From: Acholeplasma laidlawii PG-8A
GTDB lineage: Bacteria > Bacillota_I > Bacilli_A > Acholeplasmatales > Acholeplasmataceae
Reading direction: 5' to 3'
DNA length: 32,000 bases
Assembly (NCBI RefSeq): GCF_000018785.1
Contig: NC_010163.1
Location: forward strand, 1,080,001 to 1,112,000
Each line of letters begins with the position of its first letter. The first letter of the stretch is position 1. Under the pieces are notes generated by a model. That model made no database searches and had not been told where the DNA came from. It saw nothing but the letters and a program-made list of their open reading frames with translations. Positions 2,898 to 17,667 of this stretch are shown here, in pieces. Position numbers and translations under genes: made by a program.

Positions 2898-4676
2898 TTA
2901 AAATCTCCTTTCTCTCATTTTTCTAACAACATTTATATAATCTGTATCTTTACTTTCAAATTTATGACTCCAACTCTTAATTATATCTGGATCGTTACTA
3001 TTAGGTCTTGGTTCAAATTTTTGAATTCTTACCCTGGATGGTATTTTAATTGCATCACCAACAACAATACACTCACCTATTCGTAATGTGGGGAGTAGAT
3101 CCATTAATCCAGTCATGTTGTTTGGTGCTGTAGCTTTTACTGAACTTTGATCAGACGAATTAGTCAATCTCATAGAAATTGTTGTACCAACTTGAGCAAG
3201 TATCGTATCAGAAATTTCTGATGGACGCTGAGTTACAACTGCTGCTCCAATCCCAAATTTTCTACCTTCCTTAAATATTTTTTCTACACTCTTCCTTGCA
3301 TATCCGTAAATATATCTTGAATCTTGATTTTTTGGTAAATAAGCATGTGCCTCCTCAAACACCATTAATATAGGACGTGCTCTACCAGTATAATCTTCAT
3401 CTTTACCCCAAAACATACTATCATATACAATTCTATTTATTAGACCTATCGAAATATCCATCAGCTCATAAGGTATGCCACTTAAATCTAATATCGTCAA
3501 TCTTTTTTCATGTCCCATCCATTCAATAATCAAGTCATTCAAGTCCTTATTTTCTCCATCAAGATAGCCTCCAGGTTTAAACATAAAGTCATATTTATTA
3601 TCACTCAAGCGAGAAAATATTTTCTTTTCATATAAATACATGGTTTGATTCTTACTTTTATATGGTGCTTTAGAATCAACTGTATAGGGTTGAAATTGAG
3701 CTGGTATTAGTTCAGAATAATCACCCTCATCAATGAGCATTTCATTATCTCTAGTCTGTGACACTTGGTCTGCCTTGTTATATGTCGCTATTACTTCTCT
3801 ATTAAGATTGTGCCACATTAAACGAATATCAAATGGTATTGGTGAATCTTCAGTAATATATTCCTCATTAATCGATCCGGCTTTTATTTTATCTTTATTT
3901 TCCTTTTTTAATCTTACAATTTCTTCTCTAAGTCTCTTATCTTCAGGACGTTCACTTCCTGCCTCTCTACCAACCAAAAAAAATGATAATTCATCGAAGT
4001 TCATAGCCCAATACGGAATATATAAAGGTGAGTCTGGGCTGTTTAATCTCATAACTTTCGATTTAGCTGGAAATGCAGATGAATATTCACCATGAATATC
4101 AATTAAGATTATTCTGGAGCCTTCGAATTTTTCTAGTATGCTAGAAATAACTCGTGCTGTTGTATTTGATTTACCACTACCTGTTGAACCCAATATAGCT
4201 AGGTGTCTTGAAATTATTTTTTGCAAATCCAGATAAATTGGTAGGTCATTTGAGGATGCATGGGTCCCTAGTTCTATTTGTCCAGTTGAATCAAAATCAT
4301 AAATTGACTTGATATCACTCTCTGTGACTATGTGAACCTCGTCGTTAATTGTGGGAAACACTCCAATACCCTTCTGAAAAACACCTCTACCGATTTTTTC
4401 TCCAATCAAATTTACTCTTATGTTTCTATTCACAAGATCATGATCAATTAATGTCATTTTGGTTTGGTCAACGCCTGATATATTTACAGAATCAACAACT
4501 CCAAATAACATAGTATTACCCAATGGTATTCTTACTAATGTTCCTATTTGACCGATGCGATACTGAATACCATCAATAATCGGTGATGCACTTGGAATAT
4601 CATTTGAGATTCTTACATCAATTTTCCCACTATCTACATTAGTGATAAATCCTATAAAGGTGATTTTTTTATGCAT
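2898..4676 (-). CDS. herA: HerA-like (DUF87) ATPase of a SIR2-HerA anti-phage system
   Basis: Walker A GSTGSGKSNT, HerA-type Walker B region IILIDIHGEY, and C-terminal GIGAAVVTQRPSE. I prefer the ATG at 4674-4676 (GGAGGAG 6 nt upstream) over the TTG at 4691 used by the track. It overlaps the SIR2 stop by 8 nt (ATGCATAA). Confidence 0.85.
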   Translation of the reverse strand: MHKKITFIGFITNVDSGKIDVRISNDIPSASPIIDGIQYRIGQIGTLVRIPLGNTMLFGVVDSVNISGVDQTKMTLIDHDLVNRNIRVNLIGEKIGRGVFQKGIGVFPTINDEVHIVTESDIKSIYDFDSTGQIELGTHASSNDLPIYLDLQKIISRHLAILGSTGSGKSNTTARVISSILEKFEGSRIILIDIHGEYSSAFPAKSKVMRLNSPDSPLYIPYWAMNFDELSFFLVGREAGSERPEDKRLREEIVRLKKENKDKIKAGSINEEYITEDSPIPFDIRLMWHNLNREVIATYNKADQVSQTRDNEMLIDEGDYSELIPAQFQPYTVDSKAPYKSKNQTMYLYEKKIFSRLSDNKYDFMFKPGGYLDGENKDLNDLIIEWMGHEKRLTILDLSGIPYELMDISIGLINRIVYDSMFWGKDEDYTGRARPILMVFEEAHAYLPKNQDSRYIYGYARKSVEKIFKEGRKFGIGAAVVTQRPSEISDTILAQVGTTISMRLTNSSDQSSVKATAPNNMTGLMDLLPTLRIGECIVVGDAIKIPSRVRIQKFEPRPNSNDPDIIKSWSHKFESKDTDYINVVRKMRERRF

Positions 4677-5847
4677 CCAATTCTCCTCCAATGGTTGTAG
4701 TAATCTTTATTAAGAAATCAGTAAATATCTTAAAATCACCCAATGTAACATTCTTCATATCTGAATTTACAAACTGGTCATAGAATTTGTCTTCACTTAG
4801 ATTGTCAAAATCCCACTCAAACAGTGATCCTGATTTAATAACATGATTCGGTCCATAAACAGTGATGTTTTTATACATCACAAAATTATCTCTATTATCT
4901 AATAAAACTTTATCTTCATATACAAAGACCATTACATGAAGACGTTGATTATTTATTAAAGAAGTAAATATTACTTCATTGATATGCTGATCACTAAAAG
5001 AATAACCCTGAATTATGAACAGTGTCTCCGATTTTATTAGGAAATATTTTAATCTATCAAAATAGGTGGTGAATGGTTGTTTTCTAGATAAAGTATATTT
5101 TTCCTTTGATGGATATATTACTATCTCTTTATCACTTTCTTTCTTCAGTTCATGGTTCGATCTATAGATAACATCACCCTCACGATTTTTCTTCCAAAAC
5201 CAATTTAATGAACCATGAAGTTTCCATAACCTAACCCAATTTATTGGTAGACTTGATTCTCTCTCAATATTTTCAACACTCTCCTGATGAAAGAAACTAT
5301 GATATGATCCAATAAAACCATCAAAGTAAGGGATTTCTCTATCTTCTAGAGCCTTTTCTAATAATAAATCATAGTTCGTAGTGAAAATCTCAATTGCATT
5401 TGAATTTCTTACTGAATTTGCCCATAAAGCAAATCGCTTAAAAGCTTTAAATAAATCCTCATTACTAACAATTTCATTTTCTTTACTTGTTAACGTATTA
5501 TAAATGTCATTGCAGATATCATGATCAATAAGAGATGATTGTGCACCATTAATGCCAAATATTTCTAGTGAATCCATGTCGTTAGTTAGACTTCTAATCA
5601 TTCGAAGTGAATTGAGTATATCTTCTATTGTGGAGTAATCATTCATTTGTTTAGTTTTTTCAATAGAAATTATTTTGTCAATAGCTTCTTTATGTATACT
5701 ATTTTTACGGACACTATCAGTGAGTGCTTTGATTCCCGGCATTCCTGATGACATGGAACTCCCTGCCCCTAAAAAAACCCCCGTTTTCATATTATTCGAT
5801 AACTTATTCATTATGTTACTCAATTCTTGATACACGCTAATCTTCAT
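4669..5847 (-). CDS. SIR2-family (SIR2_2-type) NADase-like protein, partner of HerA
   Basis: GAGSSMSSGMPG, FTTNYDLLLE, KLHGSLNW and IIQGYSFSD are the SIR2_2 motif set. I prefer the ATG at 5845-5847 (MKISVYQ..., GGAG 7 nt upstream). The 34-codon extension in the track has no RBS. Confidence 0.85.
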   Translation of the reverse strand: MKISVYQELSNIMNKLSNNMKTGVFLGAGSSMSSGMPGIKALTDSVRKNSIHKEAIDKIISIEKTKQMNDYSTIEDILNSLRMIRSLTNDMDSLEIFGINGAQSSLIDHDICNDIYNTLTSKENEIVSNEDLFKAFKRFALWANSVRNSNAIEIFTTNYDLLLEKALEDREIPYFDGFIGSYHSFFHQESVENIERESSLPINWVRLWKLHGSLNWFWKKNREGDVIYRSNHELKKESDKEIVIYPSKEKYTLSRKQPFTTYFDRLKYFLIKSETLFIIQGYSFSDQHINEVIFTSLINNQRLHVMVFVYEDKVLLDNRDNFVMYKNITVYGPNHVIKSGSLFEWDFDNLSEDKFYDQFVNSDMKNVTLGDFKIFTDFLIKITTTIGGELDA

Positions 5848-6006
5848 TTTTCTTCTCCGATAAATATATTTTTGATAATTATTACTATTTAATTTGTTGT
5901 ATTTAAATATGTATAAATTTTTGAAAAATATCCTATACTTCGTTGTCAAGTATAACTACTCATAAATTTTATAGTCTTGTTTTTAGTTATAGACAAAATA
6001 TATTAC

Positions 6007-7197
6007 TTAATCCTTATAGTTATAGAAATAATATCCACTTTTTACATCATTTATATTGGTAATTTCAATAATTCTGATCCTTTTTTCTAATAACATTCTA
6101 TGAAGTAAATTATTTCCCACAGCATTTGGTATTGATTCTCCATAGTTTTTTAATAGTTTGATAGCATTATTCACTGTATCAGTTCTGACCTTTCTTTTCT
6201 TATCAAAGTTACTCCATGCAAAATATATAATGGTTGTACTTTCTATTAAATTACATGCATCAAAAATACTCTGAAAATATGAATAATCTTGTGGATTTAG
6301 TGAATGTCCATATATTAGTATGTGACCTTTAACAGCCTCTTTCAAGTTGAAACTCTCATCTCCATCATATGCATGTATTTTTCTAGCCGTCTTTGTAAAT
6401 AAGTATTTACTTTCATTTGACTTAATCCATTTTTTCGATTCTAAATCTTGTTCATCTATACCAAAAATGACTTCCTCTGAATGAATACTTCCATGAATAT
6501 TAGTCATGTTCCACTGTTTAATATCATCATAGTTTCTAGTAAATGTTGGTATACTATAGTTGAAATTAATTAGTGAAAATATTGAATCATTAACAGAACT
6601 TGCAATTTTAGAAAACTCTTTGTATAACAATGAATTTCTTCTTTCATATTTGATTTTATTTAAGCGTAATTGATTACTGACATACTCTTTAAAATCTAAT
6701 TCAATTATTTTTAATTGATCTAGAAGCCATTTATTATACTCTATTTGTGAAAAAGTCATTTCTTTCAATTCGAATGCTTTGCTTATTAAAGCAAACAATG
6801 GATTGAATGTTCTAACTAGACTGCTATAATTTTTACCTTGTTTTTGTATGTCTATTAGTGATATTTTGTTTTCTGAAATATATTCAAAAATCAGATTTTC
6901 AACATTATGCCACCCAGCATTCTTTTTAACTATTTTTTCACTAATAAAAACAACATCCCAAATGGATATCTGATCAAACAGCAAATTTATATCTGATTCT
7001 GTCATTCTATTTATAATTCTGTATATCGAATTATTCAAATTTAGCGAATTATCATAATCCATTTTAGATTGAATTTGATTAAAATAATCAATAGTAATTT
7101 GAAAATCCTCTTTACTATATCTTTGATTAAAATAATCAAGATAATCCGTTTTTAACCCACATTGAATATCAAATCCATTGCCTAAAACAAGTAGCAT
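6007..7197 (-). CDS. abiH: AbiH-like abortive-infection protein
   Basis: 396 aa. The N-terminus MLLVLGNGFDIQCGLKTDYLDYF matches the AbiH family (PF14253-type) hallmark xxGNGFDxxxGLxTxY. AAGAGGTG RBS. Confidence 0.75.
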   Translation of the reverse strand: MLLVLGNGFDIQCGLKTDYLDYFNQRYSKEDFQITIDYFNQIQSKMDYDNSLNLNNSIYRIINRMTESDINLLFDQISIWDVVFISEKIVKKNAGWHNVENLIFEYISENKISLIDIQKQGKNYSSLVRTFNPLFALISKAFELKEMTFSQIEYNKWLLDQLKIIELDFKEYVSNQLRLNKIKYERRNSLLYKEFSKIASSVNDSIFSLINFNYSIPTFTRNYDDIKQWNMTNIHGSIHSEEVIFGIDEQDLESKKWIKSNESKYLFTKTARKIHAYDGDESFNLKEAVKGHILIYGHSLNPQDYSYFQSIFDACNLIESTTIIYFAWSNFDKKRKVRTDTVNNAIKLLKNYGESIPNAVGNNLLHRMLLEKRIRIIEITNINDVKSGYYFYNYKD

Positions 7198-7295
7198 TTC
7201 ACACCTCTTAATACCTTGATTTTAATTCATTTTTTTATTACATTAATCTATCTTTAATATTTCACATTTTGTAATTCTTAAATATGATTTGTTGC

Positions 7296-8033
7296 CTAAA
7301 TCTTTATTTCTAAATTATCTAGAAGTTTGAAATTAACATCTCTTTTATCGTTAATAGCATCATTAACACTCTCTATTAGGAACTTTTTATAATAGTCACT
7401 TATCATATTAACCAAATTCTTAATATTGTTTGTTAGATCGTTTTTTTCTTCTCCGTTTATATAGCAAGTTTCATAGTCATCGTACATTAAAAGAATTCTA
7501 TGATGACTAATCGCATTTCTAAGTTCTTTGATTGCTCTTAAATTTTGAATAACATACTCGTCACTATTTGGAAACATTCTCTTAAGATCTTTATCAGTGA
7601 ATTTCTCGACTATCTGAATTAGTTGACCAAAATCTAGATCTTCTAATTCAAAGGCAATATTACTTCCATTTTTTAAGTTAGCTTTTATACTTTCACCTAA
7701 TTTTAATGTAGAAAGTCCATGGTTATGGCTATTAGCTATAAATGCCCTGATTTGCTCTTCAAAGGCTGATATGAACTTGTATAAACGATTTCTAAGTCTT
7801 TTATCATATTTATATAAATCAGAGACAGTTTTATATTTAATCTTTCCATCATCATCTAATCCAATAAAATTTATCAATACCACATGATAAGCAACACCTT
7901 TTAAATCAAGATATTTACTGCAGCGTTCTTCTTCCTGCGCATTACTAAATATCAATTTCTTCATGAGTTTTGATTTTGTGATATGGATATCTATATATTT
8001 ACTAGTTTTCCCAGTCATATTTGTTGTACACAT
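7296..8033 (-). CDS. Abi_2 (AbiD/AbiF-like) HEPN-domain protein
   Basis: DLYKYDKRLRNRLYKFISAFEEQIRAFIAN and IKELRNAISHHRILL (Rx4H HEPN motif) are Abi_2 hallmarks. The start is ambiguous (ATG at 8033, 8018 or 7964) and none has a clear RBS. The first two overlap the upstream NTase ORF. Confidence 0.75.
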   Translation of the reverse strand: MCTTNMTGKTSKYIDIHITKSKLMKKLIFSNAQEEERCSKYLDLKGVAYHVVLINFIGLDDDGKIKYKTVSDLYKYDKRLRNRLYKFISAFEEQIRAFIANSHNHGLSTLKLGESIKANLKNGSNIAFELEDLDFGQLIQIVEKFTDKDLKRMFPNSDEYVIQNLRAIKELRNAISHHRILLMYDDYETCYINGEEKNDLTNNIKNLVNMISDYYKKFLIESVNDAINDKRDVNFKLLDNLEIKI

Positions 8034-8673
8034 TATTTATAGATTCAATAAATAGTTGATAGGACTTCTTTTCAATGTCTTTATTGTTATTCTTTAGTTT
8101 TAAATACTCAAACTTTAACGCTTCCCATAATCCAGCAGCCTCTATATTGCTAAGTTTAAAAGAATAGTTTCTACTTCTTGGTCTTTCATTCCATAAATAA
8201 GTAGGTGATGAAGCATTCTTGTCTCTTATAATGATTTTTTGAGATTGATTTTCTTGATCATCTAATACATCTTCCACAATTCCAAAATCACAAGAATGTA
8301 CTATACTACTTTTTTCATGGTCTATTAACTTAATTGTAATTGCATTCTTATTATCTTTTGTCTGATAACCGTATTTTTTACCTATTTTTTGAATAATTTT
8401 GAAGAAATTTTCACGAATAATCTTTGCACTATTGTATCCTTTAGCTACTTTCTTAAGGCTTAGATTATAGTCAAAATCAAATCCCTTGTTAGATCCTATT
8501 TCTTTTGTAATGAGTTTTTTTCTGCCACTACCGATTAATGAAAATTGAAATGTATACTCTGGTTTCATTTCATCTTGAATTTCTCTAATAATTTCCTCAA
8601 ACTTATTTCTAACCGGTGTATATTCACCTTTTACTACAAATTCATACGCCATATATTTAACTTTTGCACTCAA
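8002..8673 (-). CDS. Pol-beta-superfamily nucleotidyltransferase-like protein, subfamily unknown
   Basis: SLIGSGRKKLITKEIGSNKGFDFDYNL (G-S ... D-x-D) plus a later acidic strand HSCDFGIV. The track start is the TTG at 8671-8673; an alternative ATG is at 8650-8652. No strong RBS seen. Confidence 0.6.
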   Translation of the reverse strand: MSAKVKYMAYEFVVKGEYTPVRNKFEEIIREIQDEMKPEYTFQFSLIGSGRKKLITKEIGSNKGFDFDYNLSLKKVAKGYNSAKIIRENFFKIIQKIGKKYGYQTKDNKNAITIKLIDHEKSSIVHSCDFGIVEDVLDDQENQSQKIIIRDKNASSPTYLWNERPRSRNYSFKLSNIEAAGLWEALKFEYLKLKNNNKDIEKKSYQLFIESINNVYNKYDWEN

Positions 8674-8890
8674 CTTTTATTAATCTAGTTGTGTACCCCT
8701 ATCCTCTCTAATTATAATTTCAAATCTATCATACTTATTGCTTTGAGTGATTTTTGAACAGAGTCCTATCAAATCTCTGTTATAATTTTCCAGTGCAAGT
8801 CTTATCTACACATTAAACTTATTAATTAAATCAATACTCAAATTTACATAGTTACTCAAACAAATTAATTTATAGTTTATCAAGAGAATC

Positions 8891-9199
8891 TTAATTTTTT
8901 TCAACCGATTTCATCTTATAATTACTTTCAATTTCGTACGTTCCTGATTTGGGTTTTAATATTTCATTCGACTTATTATCATGTTCTTTTGTAAATAAAT
9001 ACGTTAATGTAGTTATTAAATATATAGAGAAAATTAATATACATAACGATAATACTATAACTAAATCAGTTTGATTTTTCTTAAGTGCAAACACTCCAGC
9101 TGTAATAAATGATGCGTACACAGTTACACCTATACTCATTATCAGTATTATTTTACTTTTAGATAGCTTAACATATTCTGTGGGGCTTTTTTCAGACAT
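8891..9199 (-). CDS. Small membrane protein with 2 predicted TM helices, function unknown
   Basis: 102 aa with two hydrophobic stretches (IILIMSIGVTVYASFITAGVFAL and LVIVLSLCILIFSIYLITTLTYLF). GAGAGGTGA RBS. The start is 6 nt after the upstream stop. Confidence 0.6.
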   Translation of the reverse strand: MSEKSPTEYVKLSKSKIILIMSIGVTVYASFITAGVFALKKNQTDLVIVLSLCILIFSIYLITTLTYLFTKEHDNKSNEILKPKSGTYEIESNYKMKSVEKN

Positions 9200-9205
9200 C
9201 TTATT

Positions 9206-9766
9206 TCACCTCTCTTCCATAATTACTTTAATGTAGTAATGTAATGTAATATATATTTGTAAACCAGTTAGTATAGTTAAAATCAGCACACCATTATGAT
9301 TATCTGAATAATTCAGATAAATCGTAAACATGACGTTAATTAGCATAGTTAACAAGAAATCACTAAAATAGATTTTATTATGTTTTGTAGCTAGTATTTT
9401 ATGTCCACCATCACCAAACTGAAAACATATAATAACCACTGTGATCCCAAATCCGAATACTGCAGTGAATATACTTGTTCCATAATTATTTTCAACACCT
9501 TTGATACTAATTGCACTTAAGATACCGATGAGTGCACTCGGCATTTGTAGTGCAAATAAAGACGTTAATCTATATAGTTTATTATTTTTTGACTCTATAA
9601 TGTCTGTTAAAAATGGTAAAAAGAATATCACGAAAATTATCACAACTTTTACAGATGTAATGTTTTCAAAGTATTTCAACTCATAAAATATAAACACTAT
9701 TGGTATTAACAGTAATAATTTTCTAAGAATACTTATTTGTTTTTTTACAAATTTATCATCGCCCAT
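9206..9766 (-). CDS. Polytopic membrane protein with about 5 TM helices, function unknown
   Basis: 186 aa, about 5 hydrophobic segments, AGGTGAGGA RBS. No family recognised. Confidence 0.6.
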   Translation of the reverse strand: MGDDKFVKKQISILRKLLLLIPIVFIFYELKYFENITSVKVVIIFVIFFLPFLTDIIESKNNKLYRLTSLFALQMPSALIGILSAISIKGVENNYGTSIFTAVFGFGITVVIICFQFGDGGHKILATKHNKIYFSDFLLTMLINVMFTIYLNYSDNHNGVLILTILTGLQIYITLHYYIKVIMEER

Positions 9767-10097: not shown

Positions 10098-10122
10098 CAC
10101 ATATCTTATCCGGGGAGATTAG
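10098..10122. repeat. Short GC-rich repeat acatatc[ttatc]cggggagattag (copy 1, overlaps the GH94 stop codon)
   Basis: Matches 29990-30009 exactly apart from a 5-nt ttatc insertion. The GC-rich core ccgggg is unusual in this AT-rich sequence. Confidence 0.5.
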
Positions 10123-12647
10123 TCTTGTATATGTATTACATTTTGGTGTTCCAATATGGATTTATTAATATCTATATATAGTAGACCACTTAAAGTATCT
10201 AGTTTAGCTTCGATTACTTTACCATTTAATTTAAATGTTCTATTACCGTTGTTATTGTTTTTATACACGATGCGTGTAAGTTTGTTACCAATACTTACCA
10301 TCAGTGTTGCTTCTTTTGAGAAGAATGCTTTTGATGGACGAAGTCTTAGGTGATCAAACTTTACTTCAAGGCCAAATAAACCACGAATTAAAGTTTTAAG
10401 TAATGTATTTGCAGAACCTGTATACCAGTCACTCATGGACTCACCGTCCATGTTAAGCTCCTCATTGTGTACATATGAGTTTGGCATAATAAATGGTGAT
10501 GTAGACATTTCCTTTTTAGTAATAGGTAAAACTTTCAAGACTTGCTCATTAGCAAAATCTCCTTCACCTAACATATAAAGTGCTAAGACACCAAAAAGTG
10601 TTGCATGTACATAAGTTGCTGCATTTTCAGCTGTACCAGGTGGTAGGTTTATAATACGACCAAATCCGTGGAAGTCTTGCATGGCTGGATCAAATGTTTT
10701 TAGACCATATTTAGAGTCAAGATTATGGAATGCGTGTAATAAATGTGGTTTCATCTCAGGTGTATTTTTAATCATATCTGAGATGATATAAAAAGCATTA
10801 GAGGTTAAGCTATTTCTTGAGTGACCATCCGGGTCATTAAAGCTACCTACAAAGTAACTTCTGTCATGTCCCCAACCATGTAAAACGCGTTTTTCATCTT
10901 GCTTTATTACGACTGCGTATTTATTAATGCCTAAAGATAAATTATGTCTTACCACCTCATATGTGTTAATATGTTCATTTTGAGGATCAACTAGTTTTAA
11001 GATTTCAATCATGCGTTCTAAGTTTTCATATAGTTGGAGTGTTGCCATAACAGAAACACCATTACCATAACCTGAACTACCTTCAATTAAACCTAAGCCA
11101 TCAAGTGCATCATTCCAGTCTCCGTATAATGCCTTTAGGCCATATGTACTTGGATCAATATTAGACACTAAGTAATTAGTAACTCTAATTAAGTGTTCTA
11201 ATACAGAGTTTTCTACTTTAGATTTTTTAGCACTGTTTGGTTCAATACGCTCATAATACCCACATACTTCATTTAAGATATCATAATCCTCAGTATATGC
11301 TAAATAGGTATGAAGGGTTGAAATAATCCATAGACCTTGGTCAATAAATGGTCTTAAATCCATCCTCGGATTACCCTCTTTAGGAGGAAGCGCATATTGT
11401 CTAGGCGGTAATCCGGATGGATCAATAAAGGAAAGGACTTCTAATATTTTACTTCTTACATTTTTTCTATCCCAAATCAGTGATGATTCTAATTGTTGCA
11501 TAACATCTCTAACACCTAAAAATACGGTACCTGAGTTTGAAGATAGGGATGAGAAGTGTATTTGGTAATTAACTAACTTTAAAAACTGATTTAAGACTTT
11601 ATCATCTACTCGATTGTCATTTACACCTTTAAAGGAGATGCCAAAGTTATCAAAATCATAACTTTGAGTATTAGATAAACCTTCATATACTTTTTTAATT
11701 TCTTTATCAGTTAAATCAGATGCCATCATCTTATTTAATGTATCTTTATCGTGGCATGTTTCAATACGGTAACTACTAATGATGGTATCATAGGCTTTCA
11801 CTTCGTAGTTAATTAAATCAGCATTAATTGCAGTATCTGTAAAATTTGTAACAAGGGGTGCTTTTTCAAATTTTAGACTTCGAATGCTTAAAGCATTACG
11901 AACTGATCTATAACGTTTACCTACATAATCAATTCTTGAAGTTGTATTTTGAATGTTTTTAGGTTTTGTATGAAGATGTCTTTTAACCACACCATAATTT
12001 TCAATTCTGGTGTGTCTATCAATATCTTCTGGTGCATCATATATAAACATGTTATTTTCATAACTTACCTTTTTAAACCATTTTGTTTCAATACTTTCAC
12101 CGCTATCATATTTAAATAGCATATTAAAGAATGATGAAAGTGTAATTTGTTTGGTCTCTCCTGTTAGGTTGTGTGCTACTGTATTAAAGTAAATTTTAAA
12201 GTCTTTACTAATATAGACTGTAACCGCATATAAGAAGTTCTTAGTAACTGTAATATAGTAAGCTATATTTTTACTAAACACTGTGTAACGTTTATTTTCT
12301 ATTTCATCATTACGCTCTGATACACCTAGTAAAGACACAGGATATGTGTTGTTACCATCTTGTTCAATTCCAAAAAAATCTAAAAATGGTTCTTTACCTT
12401 CTAAATTTGGCGGTAGTATATAGTAAGATGAATGGTTTATTGAAATATAACCTGATGCATATGCCCAAATGGTCATACCATTTACGGCATATGGAAACCT
12501 AGCTCCACTATTGACAGGATCTGTTATAAGTGTTAATTCATCATCTAAGTAGTAAGCACCACTAGCAAGCTTTGTAATATTTAATTGGCCACTTTCAAAA
12601 AGTGAAATTTTTTGATAAATACTGATTACATCTTGTTTAAGTTTCAT
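10119..12647 (-). CDS. GH94-like glycoside phosphorylase, probably a beta-1,3-gluco-oligosaccharide (laminaribiose-type) phosphorylase by context
   Basis: 842 aa. LYGDWNDALDG (the GH94 catalytic DWND region) and C-terminal YTGSANTLLKTLIRGLFGL. Neighbours are GH16, a phosphohexomutase and a sugar ABC transporter. Substrate specificity is inferred. Confidence 0.7.
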   Translation of the reverse strand: MKLKQDVISIYQKISLFESGQLNITKLASGAYYLDDELTLITDPVNSGARFPYAVNGMTIWAYASGYISINHSSYYILPPNLEGKEPFLDFFGIEQDGNNTYPVSLLGVSERNDEIENKRYTVFSKNIAYYITVTKNFLYAVTVYISKDFKIYFNTVAHNLTGETKQITLSSFFNMLFKYDSGESIETKWFKKVSYENNMFIYDAPEDIDRHTRIENYGVVKRHLHTKPKNIQNTTSRIDYVGKRYRSVRNALSIRSLKFEKAPLVTNFTDTAINADLINYEVKAYDTIISSYRIETCHDKDTLNKMMASDLTDKEIKKVYEGLSNTQSYDFDNFGISFKGVNDNRVDDKVLNQFLKLVNYQIHFSSLSSNSGTVFLGVRDVMQQLESSLIWDRKNVRSKILEVLSFIDPSGLPPRQYALPPKEGNPRMDLRPFIDQGLWIISTLHTYLAYTEDYDILNEVCGYYERIEPNSAKKSKVENSVLEHLIRVTNYLVSNIDPSTYGLKALYGDWNDALDGLGLIEGSSGYGNGVSVMATLQLYENLERMIEILKLVDPQNEHINTYEVVRHNLSLGINKYAVVIKQDEKRVLHGWGHDRSYFVGSFNDPDGHSRNSLTSNAFYIISDMIKNTPEMKPHLLHAFHNLDSKYGLKTFDPAMQDFHGFGRIINLPPGTAENAATYVHATLFGVLALYMLGEGDFANEQVLKVLPITKKEMSTSPFIMPNSYVHNEELNMDGESMSDWYTGSANTLLKTLIRGLFGLEVKFDHLRLRPSKAFFSKEATLMVSIGNKLTRIVYKNNNNGNRTFKLNGKVIEAKLDTLSGLLYIDINKSILEHQNVIHIQD

Positions 12648-12651
12648 GTTA

Positions 12652-14025
12652 TCATATTCCTTTTAGTATATTTTTTAATGATTCGATAATGGATTCACTT
12701 TTTGACACATCATTTGTTTCAACAAATATTCTTAAGAGTGGCTCAGTACCTGAGAATCTTAAGAGTATCCATTCATCATTTTCTAGTACATATTTATAAT
12801 TTGATTTATATTGAATCACTTGTTTGAATTCAAATGGTAGGTTTGTCTTTTTATTGAGAAAATCTATAAGTTTTTCTCTGTCGTCAAATACCATTTCTGC
12901 TTCTTTTGTATATCTATAAAAGTTTGCAAATTCACGTACTTCAGCTACAATCTGTGAAAGTGGTTTTGCAAGTTTTGTTACAATCTCTATCATTAAGAGC
13001 GCGGATAAGGTAGAGTCTTTACCCTTAACATAATCTCTAATGGTAAGACCTCCTGAGGATTCACCACCAATTAAAGCATCATGCTGCATCATTCCAGCTG
13101 ATATATTTTTAAATCCTACATCGACGGTATGCGCTTTAAATTTTAGCTTTTTTGCAAGTGCATCAATAAGGTTAGAGGTTGCAATATTTTTTACAATATC
13201 ACCAGACAAGTGTCTGTGTTTTACTAGATAATAATAAATAACTGCAAGTATTTCATTATTATCTACAAAGTTACCGTGCTCATCGATCATACCCAGTCTA
13301 TCTGCATCTGAATCCAGACCCATAATAAGCTCATAACCTTTTTCCTTTTGAAGTTCCCGGTTTACGCCAATAACTTCTTCTAAAGGGTTTGGCAGGATAT
13401 AGTTAAAGTTAGGCGTTTGATCCCCTCTTAAAAACTCTAAGTTTACTAAATTATAGTAACGTTTAAAATAAGGAATTGTCTTTACACCTGTACCATGTAT
13501 AAAGTCTACTAATATCTTATTTTCAGCATTTGGTTTAATATCAATGAATTTTTTGACAAAGTTAAAGTAAGGTGATAAAAAATCAATTTTAACAACTTCT
13601 TTTATATCACGCTTATTTAATGAACCCGGTTCATTAATTAACTTTTCCAAATGGTTTGTTGCTTCTTCACTGGCATCTACTCCATGTTCAAAAAGTTTAA
13701 CACCATTATAATTATATGGATTATGAGATGCAGTGATCATCATGCCAATTGAAATATTTAAGTAACGTGCCATATACATCGCAACCGGTGTTGGTGTAGC
13801 ATCATCACTTAAATACACTTTAATACCGGCAGCAGATAATACTTCAGCAATTAAATTAGCTGTCTCTTCTGAATAGGCTCTAAAGTCATAAGATAAAGAC
13901 ACTTCTTTCTTATATTGTTTTTCTTTAATGTATTTATAGATACCTGTTGCGATTTTAACAATATTTTCCGGAATGAAATCTTTTCCGATAATTCCCCTAA
14001 ATCCACCGGTAGTAAATCTAATCAT
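12652..14025 (-). CDS. Alpha-D-phosphohexomutase (phosphoglucomutase/phosphomannomutase family)
   Basis: All four family motifs are present: TASHNP, GLDSDADR, GGESSGG and RFSGTEP. I prefer the ATG at 14023-14025 (AAGGTGA 7 nt upstream) over the TTG at 14031. TGAAAATG junction with the GH16 gene. Confidence 0.85.
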   Translation of the reverse strand: MIRFTTGGFRGIIGKDFIPENIVKIATGIYKYIKEKQYKKEVSLSYDFRAYSEETANLIAEVLSAAGIKVYLSDDATPTPVAMYMARYLNISIGMMITASHNPYNYNGVKLFEHGVDASEEATNHLEKLINEPGSLNKRDIKEVVKIDFLSPYFNFVKKFIDIKPNAENKILVDFIHGTGVKTIPYFKRYYNLVNLEFLRGDQTPNFNYILPNPLEEVIGVNRELQKEKGYELIMGLDSDADRLGMIDEHGNFVDNNEILAVIYYYLVKHRHLSGDIVKNIATSNLIDALAKKLKFKAHTVDVGFKNISAGMMQHDALIGGESSGGLTIRDYVKGKDSTLSALLMIEIVTKLAKPLSQIVAEVREFANFYRYTKEAEMVFDDREKLIDFLNKKTNLPFEFKQVIQYKSNYKYVLENDEWILLRFSGTEPLLRIFVETNDVSKSESIIESLKNILKGI

Positions 14026-14027
14026 TT

Positions 14028-16484
14028 TCAATTCACCTTGTGTGTTAAATTTATAAATAAATCATCATATGTGATATTTGTTCCCTCAAAAATCACATTG
14101 ATGGCTCTAGTGCCTTCCACTAGATTAATTACGGATGTAAAGTTTGTAAATGTATTCGCGTTTAAGTTTGATACAATAATATCTTCACCACTTATCACAT
14201 TTAAATCTTTATCTAAATACTCAATACGTACAACTGCGTTATTTGAAGCTTTGGCTTTGAGTTTAAGTGTGAGTTCAAAGGCATCATTTAACCCTGTAAT
14301 AAGGGACTCAGCACTGCCAAGTAAACCAGTTTTTAATTCACCATTTGAAATCACTGCATCCCCTGTTAACATATAACCTGTTTCATAATCTAGATCACCG
14401 TGTGGTAAAAGGTTAGAAACTGGTTTTTTTATTGGCGCTGTTGGGTAAAATGCTGTTGGAGAGGATGCCCCAGTTGGACCAACAACATACGGATGATCCG
14501 GGAATGACTCATATTTGAAATATTCAACTTCTAAATAATCTGTTTCAAAGTTTGGATCTCCTGCCCAGTTATTTGGAAACCATACACCAATCCAGTATCT
14601 TGCAGACATCGTTGGAACTTTAGTATGTTCTGTATATGCAAGTTTGCCATCGATAAAGTATTTAATATGAGGCGTCGGTAGTGTATGCCATTCAAAACGG
14701 TATATATGCCAGTTTCCATCATTATGGAAACTATCCATTTGATGGGTGTGGTTGTTATAGTTTGTTTCGGTTAACCAGTTGGTTAACCAAACTGTACTAA
14801 AATCATTGCCTACGTTAAACTCAAAATCAATTTCACTATTAATACCATCTAAGTAGTTAAATGTCCAAAATGCTGTTGTTGCCCCAAAACGTGGCATGAT
14901 TTTAGCTTTTACTTCAAAAGATCCTGGGCCAAATGCTTCTTTAGTATAGATAGCTCCCCCAGTGCGTTTTCCATTATTTTGTTCAACACCTTTTAATGGA
15001 CCTTCATAGTAATCACCATTGGCTTGAATGAGTAAATTACCTTCTTCTGTGTAGTGTACGTTTTGGAAGATTACACCACCATGATGTGTACCTCCCCAAC
15101 GTTGATTTGCAACAGCCCAAACATTGGAGTCAATACCATTTTTAAAATCTATGTTTAAACGTTGCACATCATCACCTTCTTCTACGATTTCGGGCCTGGG
15201 TTTTTTAGTTAGGTTAAAGAATAAATCATCGAAGTAAATACCAGAATCTCCTCCAATTAAAGACACTTCAACACGTTTAGTTCCAAGAGGTACATTAAAG
15301 GTAAATTCTTTACCATAGAATGTATCTGCTATAAAATCTTCATCGCTTGAGTTAAACTCAATCATATACTGATCAATTTTTTGTGTCTCTGCTGGGTAGA
15401 ACTCTAATAAGACATATCCACTACCATTTAAAGGTAGTTTTGCATGTGCACTAAATGTCATTTCAAATGTTTCATCTAATCCTGTGACAAATTGATATGC
15501 AATATCATTTTGTGGAACAAAGATTCCTCTTGATCCGTTTAAGCCTTCACCTTCTAGTAGTTCCACACCACTAGTTACAGGATAACGCCAAGCTGGAGCA
15601 TCTGTTTCAAAACCTGCATTTGAAATGAGGTTTGCTATTGGATGTTCAATCGCCTCTGATGGATAAAAGTTTGAAGGACTTTGATTATTTGCTGGCGTTG
15701 GTGTATATGGTTGTTCTTTAAATGGTGTATATTTGAACCAGTCTACATAGGTATAGTCTGTTTCAAAATCAGGTACACCTGCCCATGCATCTGGAAACCA
15801 GTTACCAATATTAAATTCTCCTGCATGATCTGGTACATAAGAAGATTGTGATGAAACTAATACATCATCAATATAATAATCAATACGTTTTGGATCTGTA
15901 AACCAGTCAAAACGGTATGTACGCCACTCAAAATCATTTTGTGCAAAATCTAAGGTATTAGACACTGTACTATATTCTGTTAAACTAATCCAGTTTGTAG
16001 TCCATACTTTTCTAAAGTCATTTTCGACGTTACTTTCGATATCTATTTCATGGTTCATACCATTATCATAATAGTAAGTCCACATAGCAGTAGTTGAACC
16101 AAAACGTGGCATAATACGCATACGTACTTCAAATCTACCAGGACCTAGTGCTTCTCTTGTTGTAATCATTGCACCTGTACGTCTGCCATGATTATTTCCA
16201 ATACCACGAAGTGGACCATCATACAAGTCACCATTGGTTTGAAGAACTACAATACCGTCATTTGTGTAATGGACGTTTTCATAGATGACACCACCATTAC
16301 CTACACCCCACTTACTATTACCAATAACCCACATATTCGGGTCAATTCCGTTATCAAAATCATCAAATACAATATTCTCTAAATCTAGATATTTATCTGG
16401 ATCAAATTTTGGTTCTTCTTTTTCTACACAACTTACCAATAGGATAGAAAGTAGAAAAATCATGATTAAGCTTATTTTCTTCAT
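14028..16484 (-). CDS. Secreted lipoprotein with two GH16 (laminarinase-type) catalytic domains, each followed by a CBM-like module
   Basis: Lipobox LLSILLVSC. Two GH16 ExDxE motifs (HEIDIES and SEIDFEF) sit in duplicated modules of about 230 aa. CBM4_9-like segments follow each module (NLISNAGFE..., NLLPHGDLDYE...). I prefer the ATG at 16482-16484 (MKKISLIM...). Confidence 0.8.
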   Translation of the reverse strand: MKKISLIMIFLLSILLVSCVEKEEPKFDPDKYLDLENIVFDDFDNGIDPNMWVIGNSKWGVGNGGVIYENVHYTNDGIVVLQTNGDLYDGPLRGIGNNHGRRTGAMITTREALGPGRFEVRMRIMPRFGSTTAMWTYYYDNGMNHEIDIESNVENDFRKVWTTNWISLTEYSTVSNTLDFAQNDFEWRTYRFDWFTDPKRIDYYIDDVLVSSQSSYVPDHAGEFNIGNWFPDAWAGVPDFETDYTYVDWFKYTPFKEQPYTPTPANNQSPSNFYPSEAIEHPIANLISNAGFETDAPAWRYPVTSGVELLEGEGLNGSRGIFVPQNDIAYQFVTGLDETFEMTFSAHAKLPLNGSGYVLLEFYPAETQKIDQYMIEFNSSDEDFIADTFYGKEFTFNVPLGTKRVEVSLIGGDSGIYFDDLFFNLTKKPRPEIVEEGDDVQRLNIDFKNGIDSNVWAVANQRWGGTHHGGVIFQNVHYTEEGNLLIQANGDYYEGPLKGVEQNNGKRTGGAIYTKEAFGPGSFEVKAKIMPRFGATTAFWTFNYLDGINSEIDFEFNVGNDFSTVWLTNWLTETNYNNHTHQMDSFHNDGNWHIYRFEWHTLPTPHIKYFIDGKLAYTEHTKVPTMSARYWIGVWFPNNWAGDPNFETDYLEVEYFKYESFPDHPYVVGPTGASSPTAFYPTAPIKKPVSNLLPHGDLDYETGYMLTGDAVISNGELKTGLLGSAESLITGLNDAFELTLKLKAKASNNAVVRIEYLDKDLNVISGEDIIVSNLNANTFTNFTSVINLVEGTRAINVIFEGTNITYDDLFINLTHKVN

Positions 16485-16497
16485 ATATTTGTCCTTT

Positions 16498-17667
16498 TTA
16501 CTTTTTAGCAACGACACCAAATGCATTGGTTACACCCACATGGATGGCACCATAAATAATGTTTTCATCACCTAGGGTCGTAAACTTAATACTAATGTCT
16601 TTAATCTTTGGATCAAGTCCTTCTAAGACCCAATCGAGATATTGTTGACCTAGTGCTTTAATTCGGCCCCCAACAAAGAATTGTCTGTAGTTAAATATAT
16701 AACTTAAGTTAGAGATTAACTCTCCTAACTTATGTGCAGTATATTTAACAACCTCTAATACTAATGCATCCTTTTCATAGAATGCTTTTACTACATCCCT
16801 ATATCTAAACTTTTCACCAATCATTGTTGATTTCCCCATAAATTGTTGATAAGTTATTTGTTTTTTTATAGAGTTAATCGAACATATAAGGTCATACACT
16901 AAGTTATTACCAAATTGATCATATGTAGAGATAAGTCCAAACTCTGCTGCATATCCATGATCACCTTCAATAATCTTATTTTCATTAAGAATCGCACCAC
17001 CCATACCAGAGTCCACATATATAAGTATTCCATTTTCAGTGATACGCTCTATTTTTCCATAATGCTGCTCACCAATAATTGCTAAGTTAATGTCATTTTT
17101 TAAAATGACATTAAGATGAAGTTTTTCTTCAAAGAATGCTCTAACTGAGACATCTTTAATTAAATTAAACTTCACTGAATTTTCAATTTCATCAGTAAAC
17201 TTATTAATCTGACCAGGTGCAGATACGATAATTGAGATGATACTTAGAAAATCCTTTTCAAATTGTTTTTTCTTATTTAAGATAATTGTGCATATTTCAT
17301 TTAAATCATCTAAGTTTAAAAATTCTCTGTCTTCTATAATCGTTTCATCAAAGATTTCTCCATTTAAATAAGAAAAGACAATTTTAATATAAGTAGATCC
17401 AAATTCAACAACACCTAAAATACCTGCTTCTTGTTTGATTGCATAAAGGGTGCGCTTATATTTTTCATTTTCATTATCGCTGTCTGCTAGATTTTCTACC
17501 AGATTCATACCTTCCATTTCAGAAAGTATCTTGAACACAGCTGTTTTAGATAATTTAAGGGCTTTTGCAATATGTGTTGCAGATAATTTTTTTGTGTATA
17601 AGAGTCTTAAGATAGACTCGATATTATTTTCCCTAATACCAGTATTTTTTACACCTTGTGCTGTCAT
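16498..17667 (-). CDS. ROK-family transcriptional regulator (N-terminal wHTH plus sugar-kinase-like domain)
   Basis: HTH segment LSATHIAKALKLSKTAVFKILSEM. ROK-like core (VSAPGQI, VDSGMGGAIL, GYAAEFG). I did not see the usual ROK Cys/His zinc motif. AAAGGAGA RBS. Confidence 0.7.
   Translation of the reverse strand: MTAQGVKNTGIRENNIESILRLLYTKKLSATHIAKALKLSKTAVFKILSEMEGMNLVENLADSDNENEKYKRTLYAIKQEAGILGVVEFGSTYIKIVFSYLNGEIFDETIIEDREFLNLDDLNEICTIILNKKKQFEKDFLSIISIIVSAPGQINKFTDEIENSVKFNLIKDVSVRAFFEEKLHLNVILKNDINLAIIGEQHYGKIERITENGILIYVDSGMGGAILNENKIIEGDHGYAAEFGLISTYDQFGNNLVYDLICSINSIKKQITYQQFMGKSTMIGEKFRYRDVVKAFYEKDALVLEVVKYTAHKLGELISNLSYIFNYRQFFVGGRIKALGQQYLDWVLEGLDPKIKDISIKFTTLGDENIIYGAIHVGVTNAFGVVAKK

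Follow-up and report, generated by a model that had tools for sequence, protein, structure and literature searches.

The window analysed here is a 32,000-nt stretch of the Acholeplasma laidlawii PG-8A genome (GCF_000018785.1, NC_010163.1, positions 1,080,001–1,112,000 of the forward strand). It contains a pair of overlapping genes, both on the minus strand of the window (Table 1). The upstream gene, gene A, encodes a nucleotidyltransferase (NTase)-like protein, and the downstream gene, gene B, encodes a HEPN protein of the Abi_2/AbiD-F family. The locus looks like an undescribed module in which an Abi_2 HEPN toxin is coupled to an orphan, miniature enzyme resembling the cGAS/DncV-like nucleotidyltransferases (CD-NTases), in place of an RNA antitoxin. 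A preliminary description of this DNA had placed both open reading frames (ORFs) and their motifs correctly, leaving the strand unstated.

Table 1. Features of the NTase–Abi_2 pair in the window (positions count from the first letter of the window)
Feature	Position	Strand	Remarks
Gene A, NTase-like ORF	8002..8673	minus	ORF from TTG 8673; likely start ATG 8652, giving 216 aa (8652..8002)
G48-S49 codons of gene A, NTase GS motif in LIGSG (LIGSGRKK)	8527..8532	minus	Invariant in 38/38 sequences and 72/72 paired NTases
D66-F67-D68 codons of gene A (GFDFDYN), metal-binding DxD of the pol-beta core	8470..8478	minus	D66 and D68 invariant
D129 codon of gene A in HSCDFGIV, third catalytic carboxylate	8287..8289	minus	Invariant in the 38-sequence alignment and in the pairs
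K194 codon of gene A in the C-terminal helical lobe (EYLKLKNNN)	8092..8094	minus	72/72 pairs, including the most divergent branch
Gene B, Abi_2/AbiD-F-family HEPN protein, 245 aa; predicted RNase, putative toxin/effector	7296..8033	minus	Pfam, PADLOC and PHROG matches
Y76-D-K-R-L-R81 codons of gene B, Abi_2 hallmark helix (YKYDKRLRN...FEEQIR)	7791..7808	minus	Aligns with YRFDKKLR of PbAbiF (8vz6_A)
R172-N-A-I-S-H177 codons of gene B (LRNAISHH), HEPN R-x4-H catalytic motif	7503..7520	minus	R172 and N173 in 72/72 pairs; H177 in 71/72
Overlap of gene A end and gene B start, 32 nt, without Shine-Dalgarno sequence	8002..8033	minus	ORF calls, sequence inspection
5' intergenic region of the module, presumed promoter and 5' untranslated region	8674..8890	minus	No RNA partner detected

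The real start of gene A is likely the ATG at 8652, because the homologues begin with M-x-Y-E-F/Y at this point and an AAGGAGG Shine-Dalgarno sequence precedes the equivalent ATG. The overlap with gene B, the alternative gap of 37 nt that results if the third ATG of gene B (7964) is used, and the lack of a ribosome-binding site for the downstream gene, all proposed earlier, were borne out by the sequence, and no purine-rich Shine-Dalgarno sequence was found in the window before either ATG of gene B. Such an arrangement implies that expression of the two genes is coupled, probably through translational coupling of gene B to gene A. ORF calls overlap by 14–74 nt in all pairs of the main clade, and the cores of the two genes aligned by profile hidden Markov models (HMMs) overlap by 19–25 nt in more than 30 metagenomic loci.

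Gene B matches Pfam Abi_2 (PF07751) with 43.5 bits (cutoff 25.6), the PADLOC models AbiD (E = 8e-10) and PDC-M34B (E = 1.8e-6), and PHROG 2158, "abortive infection resistance protein". PF07751 is present in 34/34 of its close homologues, which form a small clade of 35 clusters. Both hallmark elements of the family are strongly conserved in the 72 unique gene pairs described below. D77, K78 and R81 of the YDKxLR helix are kept in 72/72 pairs, E92 and E93 are also invariant, and the single exception at H177 of the HEPN motif is an alignment gap. The motif continues as H177-H178-R179, with R179 invariant. The sole sequence relative of gene B in the PDB is PbAbiF (8vz6, E = 0.16), which aligns over the YDKxLR helix. 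The AlphaFold2 (AF2) model of gene B (pLDDT 89.1) is a single all-alpha domain, and neither the model nor a Pfam scan reveals an appended sensor domain. A Foldseek search with this all-alpha model was uninformative (best E 0.83; Cas13d at E = 4.5; 8VZ6 not recovered). The profile matches and motifs support the earlier assignment of gene B as a true Abi_2 HEPN protein.

Gene A is not recognised by any sequence resource that was searched. With the single sequence, a 38-sequence profile and member-by-member scans, no match was obtained in Pfam, PADLOC (5,027 models), NCBIfam, PHROGs or the sequences of the PDB. No NTase family of Pfam or NCBIfam was matched by gene A, its 38 relatives or 10 divergent relatives; the best profile signal was a sub-threshold match of one divergent member to Pfam DncV-like_NTFase (15.3 bits, cutoff 24.9). 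The family itself is large. It comprises 385 clusters at 90% identity and 1,098 at 50% identity, 666 of the latter at E ≤ 1e-10, and nearly all members are 200–250 aa long.

The predicted structure is more informative. The AF2 model of gene A (pLDDT 91.4, pTM 0.86) folds as an NTase, in which a pol-beta core and a helical C-lobe, reduced to three helices, are bridged by a long N-terminal helix. All of the top 50 Foldseek matches in the PDB are cGAS/DncV-like proteins of the Mab21 fold, including ClCdnE, RmCdnE, CdnB, CdnG, CdnC, DncV, cGAS, a cGLR and MiD51 (best E = 1e-5, probability 0.97–1.0, TMq 0.39–0.56), and no minimal NTase of the MNT or KNTase type is among these 50. In the viral fold library BFVD, one uncharacterised giant-virus protein was the sole match. 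The GS and DxD motifs of gene A are separated by 17 residues. We take this spacing to be the same in DncV and shorter in MNT proteins. D131 and D133 of DncV were confirmed from a PDB title among the Foldseek matches. As previously described, the catalytic set is present, with G48, S49, D66, D68 and D129 invariant, and the alignments support gene A as an NTase of the pol-beta superfamily with intact catalytic residues. The proposal that it is an enlarged MNT-type NTase did not hold. Because the AF2 model matches only cGAS/DncV-like proteins and the 17-residue spacing fits them, gene A, as modelled, is a miniature cGAS/DncV-like, CD-NTase-like enzyme. By analogy with cGAS/OAS-type enzymes, we infer that K194 contacts the phosphates of the nucleoside triphosphate (NTP).

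The only proteins that have lost D129 are tandem NTase–NTase fusions, in their degenerate N-terminal copy. Three such proteins of about 430 aa (P0167, P0175 and P0195) have an intact C-terminal copy and an N-terminal copy that lacks the GS motif and/or the third catalytic aspartate. Their sequences suggest a dimeric enzyme in which one subunit can evolve into a pseudo-enzyme. NTase–NTase tandems were the only fusions in the top 150 representatives, none of which is an NTase–Abi_2 fusion protein.

The pairing of the two genes was surveyed from both sides. An Abi_2 gene of about 250 aa follows and overlaps the homologues of gene A with 67% and 41% identity, which lie in different defence islands. 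Homologues with about 40% identity, found in Clostridia and in clostridial prophages, are solo. In a forward survey of 80 species-representative genomes and 46 viral contigs, with an HMM of the Abi_2 clade and ORF calling, an Abi_2 partner was found immediately downstream and overlapping in 12/80 GTDB loci, all of them from Acholeplasmataceae, Mycoplasmatota or Bacilli, and in 6 viral contigs. In an identity tree, 17/19 unique NTases in the clade of gene A are paired, and about 94 of the 114 unique NTases, in other clades, are solo. For the reverse test, the Abi_2 clade was used as query against metagenomes and viral contigs, and loci with enough flanking sequence were counted. An NTase-family gene lies immediately upstream of Abi_2 in 73 of these 75 loci, which include a much more divergent gut branch with a gap of 5–15 nt between the two genes. 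A homologue was absent from the plasmid collection, and the phage collection held one, annotated as hypothetical.

The linkage survives rearrangement and deep divergence. The order is reversed, with Abi_2 before the NTase, in one genome locus (L083) and in the complete gut phage NatCom_17901 (L225; PV036423.1, Heliusvirales), where Abi_2 (3352–4029) and the NTase (4004–4621; hhalign probability 98.3%) overlap by 26 nt. Both phage genes are annotated as "hypothetical protein" and lie near genes for an anaerobic ribonucleotide reductase and a thymidylate kinase. A further divergent pair is found in L143. Across the 72 unique pairs, identity falls to about 12% for the NTase and about 24% for Abi_2, while GS, DxD, D129 and K194 of the NTase, and R172, N173 and H177 of Abi_2, are kept in essentially all of them, so that the motifs far exceed what chance would produce. 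The pairwise identities of the partners are correlated (r = 0.92), a value to which shared phylogeny contributes. Unrelated defence islands, prophages and one complete phage genome all carry the pair. Because of the 73/75 linkage, its survival in reversed order, the deep divergence and the co-divergence, these sequence comparisons indicate that the pair is a real module of ancient origin whose partners co-evolve. Dependence runs in one direction: the Abi_2 clade is almost never found without the NTase, and the NTase usually occurs without Abi_2. The synteny of the two genes proposed for checking in the preliminary description is thus found from the Abi_2 side; the NTase family, being mostly solo, is not dedicated to Abi_2.

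The solo NTases are mostly cargo of phages and of integrative and conjugative elements (ICEs). They lie between terminase genes and a gene for a ParB_N-N6/N4 methylase, beside ParE, PrgI, TnpV or recombinases, or as morons in tail modules. Clustering of the neighbours revealed only two recurrent partners of the NTase family, the short Abi_2 protein (17 non-redundant loci) and the phage ParB-methylase (16). Neither this clustering nor a Pfam census showed a recurrent neighbour of the solo NTases that could act as an antitoxin. Another recurrent effector beside them was sought by the same two approaches and rejected, as only heterogeneous cargo of mobile genetic elements and the phage ParB-methylase were present. 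In the 16 non-redundant phage or prophage loci (L107–L113, L120–L128, L131, L135, L136, L138 and L032; ~5650–7050 in each), the solo NTase lies 20–70 nt upstream of a same-strand gene for a ParB_N + N6/N4 DNA methylase of about 440 aa. The NTases of these loci fall into two divergent clusters and are often preceded by terminase genes or by a ParE toxin. The NTase and the ParB-methylase may form a conserved accessory or anti-defence module of phages.

Two other arrangements were observed in the survey. In Christensenella-type loci (L033, L034, L036, L103, L104 and L106; ~3900–7100), the NTase is the middle gene of a tight trio, between an unknown protein of about 335 aa and a protein of about 460 aa, the latter with only weak PADLOC HEC-07 and HicA-like matches. 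This trio may be another NTase-containing system. In L065 (5675–6640), an NTase of a solo clade is followed after 23 nt by a 321-aa protein with a metallo-beta-lactamase fold. It occurs once and is a candidate alternative partner.

The preliminary description had treated Abi_2 proteins as single-gene abortive-infection factors, a view that is now outdated. AbiF and AbiD are toxins of type III toxin–antitoxin (TA) systems; an RNA encoded upstream in cis binds to them and thereby blocks the HEPN site (PMC12373285, PMC12737573, PMC13064643). The antitoxin RNA corresponds to the abiF motif (Rfam RF03085); it is called RCd22 in C. difficile and AbiFr in 8VZ6 (PMC12373285, PMC12737573, PMC13064643). 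RF03085 was not found in positions 6900–9300 of the window at E ≤ 1, in the whole window and 10 paired loci at the gathering threshold, or, at E ≤ 0.1, in another 8 paired loci, among them the reversed and divergent ones. phiC2 abiF served as the positive control, and here the same scan detected the motif 75 nt upstream with 37.6 bits. Another regulatory RNA in the intergenic region upstream of gene A was considered and rejected, since this region has no Rfam match, a fold z of −0.56 and no conservation in relatives. In many paired loci, merely 3–46 nt separate gene A from the preceding gene. Because no RF03085 element, no conserved or structured upstream region and little upstream space are present, gene A occupies the slot that is usual for the RNA antitoxin. 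The absence of the abiF RNA changes the most likely role of the NTase. A promoter scan of this AT-rich DNA was uninformative (29 sites found versus 32.6 expected).

The pair belongs to a compact defence islet of about 6 kb, which consists of HerA, SIR2, AbiH and the NTase–Abi_2 genes. The HerA gene (2898–4691; DUF87/HerA_C) overlaps the SIR2 gene (4669–5949; PADLOC SIR2, 9e-124), and AbiH (6007–7197) follows next to the pair, all on the minus strand; the neighbours named earlier are thereby confirmed. The islet is flanked by genes of sugar metabolism, an epimerase (1303–2298) on one side and GH94/PGM/GH16/ROK genes (10119–17667) on the other. No intrinsic terminator is predicted on the minus strand between 9803 and 5900. 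Immediately upstream of the pair, the minus strand also carries two small ORFs (8891–9199, 102 aa; 9206–9766, 186 aa) with multiple transmembrane segments (TMs), and the 102-aa protein has a weak match to the PADLOC model "CARF, 2 TMs" (E = 0.0056). They were not found beside the pair in other loci. They are probably unrelated to it and could be a separate membrane effector. Among the glycan-utilisation genes, a 939-aa ORF (17764–20583, minus strand) has no Pfam match at E ≤ 1e-5.

In the mechanism that we favour, with evenly balanced confidence, the NTase takes the place of the RNA and restrains the Abi_2 RNase enzymatically, and the two genes form an abortive-infection or TA-type module. Gene B would be the toxic effector. 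Gene A, presumably catalytically active, would be translated first with gene B coupled to it, and would serve as the equivalent of the antitoxin. Negative regulation is favoured because the canonical RNA antitoxin has been lost, and because the asymmetric dependence (73/75 versus about 94/114 solo) fits a toxin and its neutraliser. As GS, DxD, the third aspartate and K194 are kept in 72/72 pairs, selection on the NTase appears to act on catalysis and not on binding alone. The compact, all-alpha architecture of gene B, without a sensor domain, fits control exerted directly at the active site or dimer interface better than the sensing of a second messenger.

Two routes of inhibition can be envisaged for such an enzyme. 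Tentatively, the NTase might steadily make a nucleotide or short oligonucleotide that fills the HEPN active site or dimer interface as a stand-in for the AbiFr RNA. Precedents are the constitutive nucleotide products that restrain toxic effectors in Hailong (oligo-dA made by HalB), Clover (p3diT made by CloB) and Panoptes (2'3'-c-di-AMP made by mCpol) (PMC12265719, PMC13434031, PMC12657218). Alternatively, and with lower probability, the NTase might nucleotidylylate the RNase covalently, in analogy to MNT-HepT. In either case, phage infection would stop the supply of the NTase product or destroy it, possibly through host shut-off, a phage nuclease or sponge, or NTP depletion, and the freed RNase would cleave RNA and abort the infection. 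In an extension of this mechanism that we consider improbable but worth stating, the product of the mini CD-NTase would plug the HEPN site as a synthesised antitoxin replacing the abiF RNA, and the solo homologues of phages and ICEs, often encoded beside anti-restriction ParB-methylases, would be counter-defence enzymes that provide this antitoxin in trans and so disarm Abi_2/HEPN toxins of the host.

Several observations weigh against negative regulation of Abi_2 by the NTase. It is evident from the large solo clades that the NTase also has some role without Abi_2 and that its family is not dedicated to acting as an antitoxin. Even within the paired clade, the NTase of L031 is solo, without Abi_2. 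In L020 (5026–5883), a paired-clade NTase with 52% identity to gene A is followed not by Abi_2 but by a 285-aa DUF5677 protein, which may represent an effector swap. The fold match of gene A is moderate (TMq ~0.5, E ~1e-5), and no sequence profile reaches its threshold. Its closest structural relatives, the CD-NTases and cGAS, make activating signals, and activating pairs of an NTase or polymerase with a HEPN protein exist in OAS-RNase L and Cas10-Csm6. Finally, there is a small probability that an unrecognised RNA antitoxin other than RF03085 is present, perhaps inside the coding sequence. As for the two exceptional loci, a degraded Abi_2 gene in the gap after the L031 NTase was looked for and rejected, as tblastn found none and a terminator follows the gene; the Acholeplasma oculi locus L023, closely related to L020, is also without Abi_2.

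The main rival explanation reverses the direction of control. The NTase would stay silent until it senses infection, and would then make a cyclic or linear oligonucleotide that switches on the Abi_2 RNase, leading to abortive infection as in CBASS or OAS-RNase L. The strictly conserved catalytic residues and the sub-threshold DncV-like_NTFase match are in line with this explanation, nearly all of the top 50 fold matches are signal-synthesising CD-NTases, DncV or cGAS, and the order of synthase before effector in a defence island resembles CBASS. HEPN RNases are known to be switched on by products of NTases or polymerases, RNase L by 2',5'-oligoadenylate (2-5A) and Csm6/Csx1 by cyclic oligoadenylate (cOA). 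However, gene B is a single helical domain of 245 aa without a recognisable ligand sensor (CARF, SAVED, STING or ankyrin), and the 216-aa enzyme lacks most of the regulatory C-lobe and matches no CD-NTase HMM of PADLOC or Pfam. Moreover, a near-absolute dependence of Abi_2 on the NTase, next to large and catalytically intact solo NTase clades, is unexpected for a pair of synthase and effector. Toxicity is an intrinsic property of the Abi_2 relatives, which require neutralisation (PMC12373285), and the paired clade has lost the RNA. Activation is therefore rather doubtful, although it deserves more weight than the other two rivals.

It is quite unlikely that the NTase instead acts on RNA, tailing the 3' ends of tRNA or mRNA and thereby marking substrates of the RNase, or repairing or masking its cleavage products. 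The conserved catalytic set agrees with such an enzyme, which could also explain a stand-alone activity of the solo phage copies, and pol-beta NTases that modify tRNA act in abortive-infection and TA systems, e.g. AbiEii/MenT (PMC13064643). In contrast, gene A has no similarity to AbiEii/DUF1814 or CCA-adding enzymes by profile or fold, and solo toxins of the MenT type should have a conserved antitoxin neighbour, which was not found. Least probable of all is that the genes are independent defence or accessory genes on a shared transcript, with the NTase serving a stand-alone function as in the solo clades and Abi_2 regulated in another way, for instance by an unrecognised RNA or by AbiD1-like translational control. 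Most members of the NTase family are indeed solo, the islet packs several unrelated systems head to tail, and AbiD1 is controlled at the level of translation (PMC13064643). Independence is hard to reconcile with the 73/75 linkage, which is kept across neighbourhoods, in reversed order and in pairs that diverge to about 12% (NTase) and 24% (Abi_2) identity, with a co-divergence of r = 0.92. Coupled expression follows from the overlap and the missing Shine-Dalgarno sequence, and no conserved RNA or structure lies upstream. Negative regulation by the NTase is accordingly the explanation that we retain.

If this explanation is true, a branch regulated by a protein enzyme is added to the AbiD/F family, and a nucleotide-synthesising enzyme can stand in for an RNA antitoxin. 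The AbiD/F family is among the most abundant defence families and has been proposed as the ancestor of Cas13. The pair also provides a fold and a first functional context for orphan proteins of 200–250 aa in about 1,100 clusters, so far annotated only as "hypothetical", which are widespread in Bacillota, their phages and gut metagenomes. Annotation tools label such loci AbiD or Abi2 and overlook the partner gene; PADLOC would call solely "AbiD" at this locus. If the product is an inhibitory nucleotide, the pair would be a fourth example of inverted signalling after Hailong, Clover and Panoptes, and the first with a HEPN RNase as effector. An NTase that synthesises the antitoxin would link type III TA systems to immunity based on nucleotide signals. 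The solo phage copies would represent a new class of anti-defence enzyme if HEPN toxins are neutralised by them.

Compared with known systems, the pair combines features of several without coinciding with any of them. Gene A matches no PADLOC model, and neither the pairing of Abi_2 with an NTase nor PDC-M34 or SMODS + AbiD was found described in the searchable literature, in agreement with the earlier view that this is not a named system. PADLOC PDC-M34 is approached only by the weak PDC-M34B match of gene B (E = 1.8e-6), which covers residues 130–185, the generic HEPN core only, and gene A matches no M34 partner model. With CBASS CD-NTases, cGAS and OAS, the pair shares the GS...DxD...D triad, an adjacent effector gene in defence islands, and the fold, for which they are the best and sole significant match. 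Unlike these enzymes, gene A is about 100–200 residues smaller and stays below the threshold of every CD-NTase, SMODS and DncV profile; unlike in CBASS, the effector has no nucleotide-sensor domain, and most members of the NTase family have no adjacent effector.

The type VII TA system MNT-HepT resembles the pair in having a pol-beta NTase gene upstream of, and overlapping, a HEPN RNase gene, and enzymatic neutralisation of the toxin is plausible for the pair too. This gene arrangement is the part of the earlier idea of an MNT-HEPN-like hybrid that stands. The part that does not stand concerns the proteins. Gene A is a 216-aa, two-lobe, cGAS/DncV-like protein instead of a minimal NTase of 100–140 aa, and has no NTP_transf_2 or MNT match. 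The HEPN protein is Abi_2 and not HepT. The HepT motif is R-x4-H-x-Y with an acceptor tyrosine, which gene B lacks, as it reads H177-H178-R179.

The operon logic of Hailong (HalB/HalA), Clover (CloB/CloA) and Panoptes (mCpol/2TM-beta), a small nucleotide-polymerising enzyme with a toxic effector, is also that of the pair, if gene B is toxic as we suppose. In these three systems, enzyme-dead mutants are toxic (PMC12265719, PMC13434031, PMC12657218). Their effectors are an ion channel, a dGTPase and a membrane protein, in contrast to a HEPN RNase, and mCpol has a GGDEF/palm fold. No HalB or CloB entry appeared among the top 50 Foldseek matches of gene A or in the PDB sequence searches, and no direct sequence comparison was made.

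The closest comparison for gene B is with the AbiF/AbiD type III TA systems (PbAbiF-AbiFr, 8VZ6; C. difficile AbiF-RCd22). It is distant from canonical AbiF (E = 0.16 to 8vz6, hhalign probability about 20% to phiC2 AbiF) and shorter (245 aa versus 287–350 aa), yet it scores above the Abi_2 threshold and has both the YDKxLR helix and the R-N-x3-H motif. The systems likewise occur in defence islands and phages, with the regulator encoded immediately upstream and co-transcribed. What differs is the content of the upstream slot, which here holds the protein-coding NTase gene instead of the abiF RNA.

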